Assembly: GCA_963931495.1 (NCBI GenBank)
Contig: OZ007020.1
Span: 510,001 to 542,000 of the forward strand
DNA from: an uncultured Alphaproteobacteria bacterium
Lineage (GTDB): Bacteria; Pseudomonadota; Alphaproteobacteria; Rs-D84
Length of the DNA: 32,000 bases
Direction of reading: 5' to 3'
A program made the translations under genes and the position numbers. This document shows, in pieces, positions 3,868 through 5,533 of the stretch. A model generated the notes under the pieces. That model saw only the letters and a list, made by a program, of their open reading frames with translations, was not told the origin of the DNA and did not search any database. Position 1 is the first letter of the stretch. Every line of letters begins with the position of its first letter.

Positions 3868-4593
3868 TTATCGTGAAAATTGCTGTTCCAGTTCACGTAT
3901 GTATTGCATTTGTTTGCGCATGAAAGATAATTTTTCCAGATTATTATCTGCACTCTTTTTATTGGCCGGCGTTATGCGCAGATCATCAGACGCCTTGATA
4001 AATCGGCGCAACCATACAACCATGATGCGATATTTCATAATTTCACGCAATGTATCACTTTTGACGCCCGGCATGTTGTATAATGACTGGTTATGCATTT
4101 TATAGTATGCTTCATATACATTTTTATATATGTTCAGTTCTATTTGCAGTGGCGCAAATATATCACGATATATGAATTTATAGTCTGCTTCGGCAAAGTC
4201 AATAAATGATAAGCGGCTGGATTTTGTGTCGTACATCACGTTGCGTGAACTGATGTCGGCATGTGACCACGCGTTACGTGTTTCATATTCAAACACAGAA
4301 ATTTTGTCGCGAATGTTGGCCATTTGATAAATTTCTTCGCGCGTAAACCATATGTGCATTTTGTTTTCTATGAAATTGTCAAGACGCGAAAACTTTAATT
4401 CATTTTTAATGTTGTTTCGTTGAATGTCGCCAATGGGTTTTAATTCATTCATATCAACAAGAAAACTGGCGATGCTGTTTATGATTTCAAATTGTTGACG
4501 CTTTGATAATGTGTCATATAATTCCCAGGTTAATGGAACCCCGGGCGCGCGTTCTTCCAGAATTTGATATTCTGTATCGTGGATGTATTCCAT
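3868..4593 (-). CDS. APH/choline-kinase-like phosphotransferase (protein-kinase fold), C-terminal 241 codons of a frameshift-split gene
   Basis: Catalytic loop HADISSRN (HxDxxxxN), metal-binding IDFAEA, and hinge-like ILEERAPGVPL. The N-lobe is encoded by the fragment at 4637-4795. Confidence 0.7.
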   Translation of the reverse strand: MEYIHDTEYQILEERAPGVPLTWELYDTLSKRQQFEIINSIASFLVDMNELKPIGDIQRNNIKNELKFSRLDNFIENKMHIWFTREEIYQMANIRDKISVFEYETRNAWSHADISSRNVMYDTKSSRLSFIDFAEADYKFIYRDIFAPLQIELNIYKNVYEAYYKMHNQSLYNMPGVKSDTLREIMKYRIMVVWLRRFIKASDDLRITPANKKSADNNLEKLSFMRKQMQYIRELEQQFSR

Positions 4594-4636
4594 GGCGGGA
4601 ATGTTATATGACGGATTGTTTTTGGCCCGGATTTCA

Positions 4637-4795
4637 TCAATGATTTTTTTTGGTTTTATGCTGCTTGGCCAGCCATGCGTTGCGCTTTTCCAGGGTAAAT
4701 GTCGGTAATGGACGTTTCAGTACAAATTTGTCACCATAGTATACGGCATACGTTTCACGACCATGGTTTTCAAGATTTTTAATATCGTCCGGCAT
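4637..4795 (-). CDS. N-terminal fragment (52 codons) of the same kinase; not in the ORF track
   Basis: My own translation gives MPDDIKNLENHGRETYAVYYGDKFVLKRPLPTFTLEKRNAWLAKQHKTKKNH*. It contains a beta3-Lys-like FVLKRP. The ATG at 4795-4793 abuts the upstream gene's TAA (TAAATG). Removing one base from the A8 run (plus-strand T8, 4644-4651) joins it in frame to ...KKIIDEIRAKNNPSYNIPAMEYIHD.... Confidence 0.55.
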   Translation of the reverse strand: MPDDIKNLENHGRETYAVYYGDKFVLKRPLPTFTLEKRNAWLAKQHKTKKNH

Positions 4796-5533
4796 TTACA
4801 GTATCTTTGATTTTGTCAGTACTTGGATAATTTCTTTTTGTGTGCGTAACATGCATGATTTCATGTATGACATATACGCCTTGTAATTTCCATTGGCATA
4901 TGCAGTGATTGCGTCTTTATATTTCTGTTTGTCTGATGGGTGATTAAATACAATTGGCCGGTATCCGCCCTGAATCAGTACCCAATTCATGACCATGCGC
5001 GCCATACGTTTATTAAAATCATCAAACGGTTGCAACATAATTAATTCATAATGCACCTTGAACGCGCGTATTGGCGCAGAATCAAATGTATTGTTCAGAT
5101 TAAATATAATTTCATTTAATCGTGATGGTATTTCATGGTATTCAGGCGCATGCATACGTTGGCCATTGACAGTAATCTCAATAACCTTTGGGGTGCTGCG
5201 GAAAACGCCGCCATGGATTTTTGTGCCGGCACACATCATGCTGTGAATGCGGCAGACTTCGGTTGCATCAATCGGCGATTTTGGATTATGTATTATATAG
5301 TCATACGCATCACCGATGTTTTTCATAGAATTGTAATCTAAATATGGTTGCTGGTTTTTATTCGGAACATAGAATAATGTACGTGGTTCAGTGTATGATA
5401 TTTCATGACGCAGCCAATTTACGTTATTTAACCGTTTGACAGTCCCAGCACCTGATAATAACTTGGTTATTACCATGCGGTTCTGTTCAATTGGACTTTC
5501 AAACTTTTGTGTTTTTGTCATACTGTGTACCAT
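4796..5533 (-). CDS. Fic/Doc (Fido) fold protein with degenerate active-site motif
   Basis: The Fic-core layout is readable: IHGGVFRS...V.I, then HYELIMLQPFDDFNKRMARMVMNWVLIQGGYRPIVF....Y..A. The motif position (4997-5032) reads QPFDDFNKRMAR instead of HPFxDGNGRxxR. Confidence 0.75.
   Translation of the reverse strand: MVHSMTKTQKFESPIEQNRMVITKLLSGAGTVKRLNNVNWLRHEISYTEPRTLFYVPNKNQQPYLDYNSMKNIGDAYDYIIHNPKSPIDATEVCRIHSMMCAGTKIHGGVFRSTPKVIEITVNGQRMHAPEYHEIPSRLNEIIFNLNNTFDSAPIRAFKVHYELIMLQPFDDFNKRMARMVMNWVLIQGGYRPIVFNHPSDKQKYKDAITAYANGNYKAYMSYMKSCMLRTQKEIIQVLTKSKIL

Follow-up and report, generated by a model that had tools for sequence, protein, structure and literature searches.

The 32,000-nucleotide (nt) stretch of contig OZ007020.1 analyzed here (in the following, the window; all coordinates are positions within it) contains, on its minus strand, a gene for a 245-amino acid (aa) protein of the Fic family, which is immediately followed by one for a kinase of the aminoglycoside phosphotransferase (APH)/choline kinase fold (Table 1). 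On balance, we favor the interpretation that the two genes constitute an ancestral, vertically inherited operon combining an atypical Fic protein with this kinase. A near-consensus sigma-70 promoter would drive the Fic gene, with the kinase gene abutting it downstream.

The species scan comprised one genome per species and, like all locus scans of this study, was seeded on either the Fic or the kinase sequence. A relative of Fic was found in 118 species, the best 80 of which are considered here. Except for one (L023), which is binned as Bacteroides fragilis, these are uncultured gut Alphaproteobacteria/“Candidatus Enterousia” from humans, chickens, ruminants, and horses. The lineage corresponds to the order Rs-D84, with genomes of 0.75–1.0 Mb that encode neither the tricarboxylic acid cycle nor respiration (PMC12306168). 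A divergently oriented ctpA gene lies upstream of the Fic gene in 78 of these best 80 loci. A kinase gene adjoins it in 62 of 79, following it on its own strand in 47 (gaps of ≤46 nt between the tblastn high-scoring segment pairs), in convergent orientation in 12, and upstream in three. The genes for PFOR, EnvC, TyrS, and Tsf flank the pair in the relatives as they do in the window, and relatives with as little as 43% identity in Fic have the same genes at this site. The ratio of nonsynonymous to synonymous substitution rates (dN/dS) is 0.04–0.14 for the two genes, compared with 0.02–0.09 for the housekeeping flanks.

A preliminary description, made from the sequence alone, had considered the pair an insertion of horizontally acquired DNA between envC and ctpA, with spot counts giving a G+C content of ∼30–38% inside compared with ∼47–57% in envC and PFOR. 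The unit is indeed lower in G+C than its flanks, but the contrast is smaller than was thought (38.2% for the Fic gene and 38.4% for the kinase gene; 42–46% for tsf, tyrS, envC, ctpA, and PFOR; 43.9% for the whole window) and disappears when only third codon positions (GC3) are compared (0.39–0.41 for the unit and 0.38–0.43 for the flanks). The relatives behave the same way: total G+C of the pair was below that of the core flanks in 79 of 79 cases, by 5.7 points, and GC3 differed by −0.5 points (sd 4.4). Because GC3 equals that of the flanks, and because Phe, Tyr, Met, Ile, Asn, and Lys together make up 40% of the residues in both proteins (25–31% in the flanking proteins), the low G+C reflects protein families rich in Ile, Lys, Asn, and Tyr and not a foreign origin. 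Neither a tRNA nor an integrase was found at the borders of the locus, and the repeats present there are only short and imperfect; together with the flank-like GC3 and the presence of the genes in the relatives, this is not the picture of a horizontally acquired islet. Thus, synteny, the conserved promoter, low dN/dS, and flank-like GC3 all indicate that the pair is an ancestral, vertically inherited unit of the reduced-genome gut Alphaproteobacteria of the order Rs-D84. The claim of an insertion had to be abandoned, as relatives down to 43% identity in Fic share the locus and its backbone-like synonymous composition, a finding that the preliminary description itself had named as its refutation; low total G+C and antisense orientation are no evidence of horizontal transfer at this locus.

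The promoter and the TAAATG junction of the two genes, both of which had been pointed out in the preliminary description, are present in the sequence. The −10 hexamer ends 12 nt ahead of the ATG at 5533 and 24 nt ahead of a second one at 5521, the equivalent of which (MTKT…, ∼241 aa) is the start codon in most Fic homologs. Elements of the type TTGACA-N16–18-TATAxT were found 34–54 nt upstream of the Fic gene in most relatives, with at least 10 of 12 consensus matches in 71 of 79 and at least 11 of 12 in 60 of 79, whereas shuffled upstream regions, which served as the control, contained them in 12 of 79 and one of 79, respectively. Abutment of stop and start codons is commonplace in a genome as compact as this one: tyrS overlaps with envC at 2789, and the ends of envC and the kinase gene are 2 nt apart.

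The assignment of the 245-aa protein to the Fic/Doc fold was borne out by profile and structure. Its match to the Pfam Fic profile (PF02661; E 4.5e-12, 47.1 bits) is well above the gathering cut-off (24). The AlphaFold2 model (predicted local distance difference test [pLDDT] score 88.4) has the alpha-helical Fic fold, with FICD (PDB 6i7g) as the top Foldseek match (template modeling [TM] score 0.72, E 1.2e-9), which places the protein in the Fic/Fido superfamily. Searching the PDB with the family profile retrieved FICD/HYPE at 2.5e-18, and Doc structures were not among the matches. Homologs number 158 at E ≤ 1e-3, of which the best 120 share 47–100% identity; dN/dS of the Fic gene is 0.04–0.11.

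The active site motif departs from the canonical one of AMPylating Fic proteins, HxFx(D/E)GNGRxxR, at three positions: the catalytic His is replaced with Gln, the first Gly with Phe, and the second Gly with Lys, the latter as in Doc. Of 106 related loci, 101 have Gln and five have His as the first motif residue, Lys (within NKR) is present in all 106, and the position of the first Gly is occupied by Phe, Tyr, or Cys. The alignment of the family retains the residues that bind phosphate (Asp, Asn, Arg, and Arg) throughout. When 1.84 billion cluster representatives were searched with a profile, the Q…NKR signature was found in ∼40 clusters of the family (50% identity) and in distant relatives, and the nearest proteins beyond it carry the canonical HxFxDGNGR. 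A His-bearing sequence is nested within the Gln clade of a neighbor-joining tree; therefore, Gln is ancestral at the catalytic position and His a secondary reversion. The sublineage that regained His (loci L064, L065, L067, L135, and L141; HPFDDYNKRTSR; HPFDDYNKR) has a motif close to that of Doc. At these loci, the kinase gene is either convergent to the Fic gene or absent, and envC is inverted.

Near its N-terminus, the protein contains a helix homologous to the inhibitory helix of class II Fic proteins. The class II signature (S/T)xxxE(G/N) is absent from it: the position of the canonical Glu, where the aligned canonical relatives read YTSNAIEGNTLT, is held by Leu or Phe. E49 and P50 are invariant in the alignment, and E49 is located four residues, i.e., one helical turn, upstream of that position. 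The deep Q…NKR signature, the shifted invariant Glu, and the kept phosphate-binding residues argue for a conserved alternative active site, family-wide and old, rather than for random decay. With Asp, Asn, Arg, and Arg kept, a Lys of the Doc type, Gln in place of the general-base His, and a relocated Glu in the inhibitory helix, the protein is most likely not an AMPylase but would bind a nucleotide or a phosphorylated ligand and perform, or regulate, a phosphoryl-type rather than an adenylyl-type reaction. By analogy with Doc, its Lys would counteract AMP transfer and promote an inverted nucleotide, and with the His base missing, AMPylation of a hydroxyl group is the less probable activity.

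The kinase gene is frameshifted in the window. Deleting one A in silico resulted in a 308-aa protein, the analysis of which agreed with the aminoglycoside/choline kinase fold proposed previously. It matches the Pfam APH profile (PF01636) at 1.8e-6 (28.3 bits, cut-off 23.2; homologs reach up to 40 bits) and, weakly, that of choline kinase. The best match in a profile search of the PDB was APH(2'')-Ia (1.8e-5), as it was for the AlphaFold2 model (pLDDT 84.2) in Foldseek (TM ∼0.48). Because Lys27, the loop His178-x-Asp180-x4-Asn185, and the Mg-binding Asp199 are invariant across the homologs, the intact kinase should be catalytically competent. The full set of catalytic residues, the H-x-D-x4-N loop of the small-molecule type, and the basic pI (8.99) suggest that it is most likely an active ATP/GTP-dependent enzyme for a substrate other than aminoglycosides. 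A match to TCAD9 (ternary conflict system domain) covers 50 residues around the catalytic loop at 27 bits (cut-off 40) and was dismissed as generic kinase-loop similarity.

The preliminary description had read the kinase gene as a single open reading frame (ORF; 4795–3868) and thereby read through the frameshift: a run of eight A splits it into ORFs of 52 aa and 241 aa. The 5′ fragment encodes the conserved N-lobe with HGRET and the ATP-binding Lys27 (4717–4715), and the remainder encodes H-x-D-x4-N (4263–4240) and the Mg-binding Asp within IDF (4200–4198), so that, in the window, the N-lobe is parted from the catalytic loop. A contig of another sample that shares 99.4% identity over 11.5 kb with the window (L001) has seven A and an intact gene for 308 aa, the tract being the site of the sole gap. 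Two other conspecific contigs (L005 and L006) have six A. Eight A are present in the window and five further contigs (L088–L092), which are identical to it over 3.1 kb and have five different assembly or run accessions. The records include the 52-aa product on 15 contigs and the exact truncated product of the window (the A8 allele) on 22–23. Overall, intact alleles were found on at least 144 contigs, and truncated ones, which represent three allelic backgrounds and both directions of slippage, on ∼25. Sequencing error was rejected as the cause of the frameshift, as the identical A8 tract is found in HiFi-style, SPAdes, MEGAHIT, and Logan assemblies and the 52-aa product on 15 contigs.

A coding homopolymer the length of which varies within a species (A6, A7, and A8 on contigs otherwise 99–100% identical) and thereby switches the frame is what is expected of a phase-variable gene. 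The tract is absent from the one 82%-identical sister species compared, which has no homopolymer at this position (KTKDAID). The presence of three alleles within the species and the absence of the homopolymer from its sister species indicate that the tract is a species-specific mutational hot spot which switches the kinase off. As judged from the gene, this +1 slip abolishes the kinase of the window strain or, at a minimum, reduces it strongly. An mRNA lacking one A, or a −1 slip of the ribosome, would restore the exact wild-type sequence (KTKKIIDE), which is probably inefficient at a run of eight. One of the A8 contigs (L088; ENA ERZ21564551, s287.ctg000449c), which matches the window without a difference over the 3.1 kb compared, has a length of 958,617 bp; we take the suffix “c” of its name (hifiasm-meta naming) to mean that it is probably a circular, complete genome. 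Its size of less than 1 Mb is consistent with the published genome sizes of Rs-D84. The kinase of the 82%-identical relative on a further scaffold (L007, 1–500), truncated at the same internal Met, was rejected as a further poly(A) event, as the scaffold is short and the sequence upstream unrelated; it reflects either a rearrangement or a chimeric assembly.

How tightly the two genes are linked was addressed via their neighborhoods, a comparison proposed with the preliminary description, and the outcome was mixed. The kinase gene adjoins the Fic gene in the majority of species, but several observations weigh against a functional unit. The Fic gene lacks an adjacent kinase gene in 17 of 79 species; one of these retains a decaying kinase remnant, and in others envC or unrelated housekeeping genes are located beside Fic. 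Conversely, a kinase-seeded metagenome scan revealed ∼9 loci with the kinase alone between envC and ctpA. The nearest kinase outside the clade (38% identity) adjoins the gene for GAPDH, with no Fic gene there, and distant Q-NKR Fic genes are found beside ankyrin-repeat genes or an amidase gene, with no kinase nearby. Synteny of the whole region is high, so adjacency alone says little, and the partial correlation between the divergence of Fic and that of the kinase is weak (r = 0.33) and uncorrected for phylogeny, for which reason coevolution of the mirror-tree type was rejected as support. Furthermore, the structural match of the kinase is loose, and Gln at the catalytic position of Fic could simply mean that the enzyme is inactive.

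The fact that no partner is located beside the homologs outside the clade led us to reject pairing there and to consider it clade-specific. The fact that each gene persists alone at the locus excludes an obligate toxin–antidote relationship, whichever of the two were the toxin. Functional coupling of Fic and the kinase remains plausible; the two proteins may act in one common pathway, with a coupling that is facultative, given that some lineages keep Fic alone and others the kinase alone. Our literature search yielded no paper describing the pairing of a Fic protein with an APH-fold kinase, in agreement with the preliminary description, the author of which had known of no such system.

Two further observations concern loci outside the clade. 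The contig of the 38%-identical kinase (L144) encodes a second, unrelated kinase of the APH family at 7724–8620, 2.8 kb downstream. On three contigs from an unidentified gut bacterium (L146 and L147, 2468–5789; L148, 1624–5798), a Fic gene with the motif QxFxDANKR immediately follows two or three ankyrin-repeat genes, in a position between gyrA/PPIase and recJ.

A realistic, if not the preferred, alternative is that the two genes are unrelated neighbors, i.e., an atypical Fic regulator that acts on its own and a small-molecule kinase, for salvage or detoxification, that is dispensable, with the promoter being common to both through genome compactness. It would account for the lineages in which either gene occupies the locus without the other, for the recurrent loss or frameshifting of the kinase gene while Fic is kept, and for the 12 species with the kinase gene convergent to, and thus transcribed separately from, the Fic gene. 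Tight junctions are the rule in this genome, and Fic diverges much faster (from 87% to ∼30%) than the kinase (from 82% to 50%). On the other hand, adjacency persists through three local arrangements, stop and start codons abut in the majority of species, and the partial correlation of divergence, albeit weak, is positive.

Less readily reconciled with the data, and in our view unlikely, is a role of the two proteins as secreted effectors which modify proteins of a partner cell, be it bacterial or eukaryotic (host or protist). Both the Fic and the kinase fold are frequent among effectors, the carriers’ genomes of ∼1 Mb or less and their incomplete metabolism suggest dependence on a partner, distant Q-NKR Fic genes directly follow ankyrin-repeat genes, and an ORF resembling leucine-rich repeats is located 1.6 kb away. 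The matches to the effector families XopAC (9.9e-7) and XopAU (0.034) in NCBIfam are weak (27.8 and 13.7 bits, respectively, with a cut-off of 450), neither a secretion signal nor a secretion system was identified, and the genes reside within a housekeeping syntenic block with dN/dS as low as that of core genes.

A catalytically dead Fic protein serving as a scaffold that binds and regulates the kinase appears doubtful. In keeping with such a pseudo-Fic, which was among the suggestions of the preliminary description, the catalytic His is replaced with Gln in 101 of 106 loci, and the two genes are cotranscribed with abutting stop and start codons. What disfavors the scaffold is that Asp, Asn, Lys, Arg, and Arg are invariant over a deep family, which argues for ligand binding or catalysis, that Gln and His interchange at the site, and that Fic is under purifying selection also in the 17 species and the window strain, which have no functional adjacent kinase. 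An ambitious extension of the operon interpretation, for which we see only an outside chance, would have the Q/NKR Fic proteins constitute a distinct class of active enzymes that bind ATP in the manner of Doc and have a relocated regulatory Glu. Together with the kinase, they would form a hitherto undescribed writer/eraser or two-step phosphoryl-transfer circuit, kept in gut symbiont genomes of ∼1 Mb or smaller, the kinase arm of which would be switched on and off by poly(A) slippage in this species.

A toxin–antitoxin (TA) or anti-phage defense module, in which Fic would be the toxin and the kinase its partner or the reverse, is very unlikely, although Fic/Doc proteins are classic TA toxins, the two-gene tandem architecture is reminiscent of such systems, and the Fic protein has matches in PADLOC (candidate PDC-S04, 1.6e-17; SoFic, 1.3e-10). 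These matches represent generic Fic similarity only, and a PADLOC search with the kinase gave no match, for which reasons a defense system was rejected. The obligate co-occurrence and the patchy or mobile distribution characteristic of type II TA systems were not observed: more than 100 species share the locus, which is fixed and passed on vertically, and each gene persists alone (Fic in 17 of 79 species, the kinase in ∼9 loci). The presence of the kinase-null A8 allele on 22–23 contigs means that Fic does not kill its carriers when the kinase is missing. Fic lacks the canonical toxin motif, and no small ORF for a Phd- or VbhA-like antitoxin was found upstream of the Fic gene, where ctpA is the divergent neighbor. 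The toxin/regulator pair suggested in the preliminary description is thus hardly tenable for genes that are syntenic, vertically inherited, under purifying selection, and found without each other. Finally, a recent AT-rich horizontal cassette between envC and ctpA, for which the total G+C ∼5 points below that of the flanks and the antisense orientation would speak, is extremely improbable, given GC3 equal to the flanks in the window and 79 relatives, the same place held down to 43% identity, a conserved promoter, no hallmarks of mobility, and an amino acid composition that accounts for the low G+C.

Table 1. Coordinates of the Fic/kinase unit and its two neighbors in the window.
Feature	Position	Strand	Basis or remark
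Sigma-70-type promoter, TTGACA-16-TATATT	5546..5573	−	11/12 consensus matches in scan; upstream of Fic gene
Fic-family gene, 245 aa	4796..5533	−	ORF and Pfam Fic
N-terminal helix SYTEPRTLF, residues 46–54	5372..5398	−	Homologous to class II inhibitory helix
Non-canonical Fic motif QPFDDFNKRMAR, residues 168–179	4997..5032	−	Homolog alignment
TAAATG junction	4793..4798	−	Fic stop TAA (4798–4796) abuts kinase ATG (4795–4793)
Kinase 5′ fragment (ORF1), 52 codons and premature stop	4637..4795	−	ORF list, repair, alignment
Poly(A)8 tract (T8 on plus strand)	4644..4651	−	Shifts kinase frame
Kinase remainder, out of frame with start	3868..4643	−	Longest ATG ORF 4593..3868, 241 aa
ctpA, S41 C-terminal processing protease	5673..7109	+	Pfam Peptidase_S41, 5.3e-62; context, outside unit
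EnvC-like M23 protein, convergent neighbor	2789..3865	+	Pfam Peptidase_M23, 1.6e-16; context, outside unit

The intergenic region common to the divergent genes ctpA and Fic comprises 139 nt. Beyond ctpA, an ORF at 7124–7786 (plus strand) encodes 220 aa with leucine-rich-repeat-like units of ∼22 residues (FDCSxNxLxSLxGAPxxxxx) and has no significant Pfam match. Because a homolog is present in only ∼8 of 80 related loci and is very AT-rich there (mean G+C 32%, GC3 0.24), it looks like a variable gene, possibly one for a surface or host-interaction protein. Between this ORF and the gene for PFOR, a divergent ClpP-like protein of 224 aa is encoded (7816–8490, minus strand; Pfam CLP_protease, 3.6e-12), which is present in some relatives only (29–72% identity) and may be a paralog of the housekeeping ClpP. 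An ORF of 2067 aa (20156–26359, plus strand), very large for a genome of ∼0.96 Mb, has no Pfam match at E ≤ 1e-3 and contains a run of eight G (21968–21975). The other homopolymers of at least eight bases (3399–3406, 8755–8762, 13672–13679, 15190–15197, and 27472–27480) are located within ORF spans identified via Pfam (envC, PFOR, CarD-like, and LptC-like) or in intergenic DNA.

Members of Rs-D84/Enterousia are uncultured and common in the guts of humans and livestock. Strong purifying selection in genomes of ∼900 genes makes it likely that the gene pair is important to how they live. In the Fic protein, the catalytic motif by which its family is defined has been altered in a deeply conserved manner; the chemistry of the protein would widen the range of known Fic reactions and test whether Fic proteins that look “dead” are really inactive.

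Of the known systems, the class II AMPylases/deAMPylases FICD/HYPE (PDB 4u04 and 6i7g) are closest to the Fic protein of the window by both profile (2.5e-18) and fold (TM 0.72). Common to them are the Fic core of eight helices, the N-terminal helix homologous to the inhibitory one, and the motif residues F, D, N, R, and R. Unlike FICD, the protein has QPFDDFNKR instead of HPFxDGNGR and Leu/Phe instead of the Glu in (S/T)xxxE(G/N), with an invariant Glu four residues upstream; it also lacks TPR and membrane segments and is only 245 aa long. Doc is a Fic-fold kinase of EF-Tu with the motif HxFx(D/N)(A/G)NKR, in which Lys in place of the second Gly inverts ATP binding and makes the protein a kinase (PMC4177925). 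The protein of the window shares the N-K-R ending with Doc but has Gln instead of His and Phe/Tyr instead of Ala/Gly at position 6, and its scaffold is FICD-like and not the short six-helix fold of Doc (TIGR01550, 13 bits compared with 38.65). Thus, neither the motif nor the combination of a short protein, a phd gene, and a TIGR01550 match that marks Doc toxins is found. In contrast to Phd-Doc, the locus is chromosomal and syntenic and has no Phd antitoxin.

Clade “D2” of Khater & Mohanty (2015), defined in silico from 45 sequences by the motif Qx[F|Y]x[D|E][G|V]NKR, likewise combines Gln in place of His with NKR. It consists of bacterial proteins that have a single domain and no assigned function, and neither gene context nor a kinase partner is given for them (PMC4454073). 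As far as the description of the motif allows comparison, the family studied here differs at position 6, which is Phe, Tyr, or Cys and not Gly or Val. The arrangement of ankyrin-repeat and Fic genes on the three contigs mentioned above recalls AnkX, with the ankyrin repeats and Fic being encoded by separate genes there.

The indel in a coding poly(A) tract that interrupts the kinase gene in this small genome has precedents in tssM1 and in Blochmannia. Rescue by transcriptional slippage is known for longer runs of A (PMC4256274), and frameshifts at poly(A) tracts are tolerated or partly rescued in this way, e.g., in tssM1 of Citrobacter rodentium (A11, ∼20% slippage) and in Blochmannia (PMC4256274 and PMC3017870). 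Unlike that of tssM1, the tract in the window comprises only eight A and is not conserved in the sister species.

The kinase shares with APH(2'')-Ia and the APH/choline kinases the catalytic Lys, H-x-D-x4-N, and Asp residues and the helical C-terminal substrate lobe. An aminoglycoside resistance kinase of the APH(2'') type was nevertheless rejected, as the matches to the respective NCBIfam models (∼1e-7) reach 27–32 bits versus cut-offs of 475–625, the TM score is ∼0.48, and the pI is basic (9.0) and not acidic. Unlike APH(2''), the family of the window kinase has an invariant N-lobe signature (HGRET/KRPLP) and the helix RFIKA(S/A)DDLR, and its gene is a conserved, core-like one rather than a resistance determinant.

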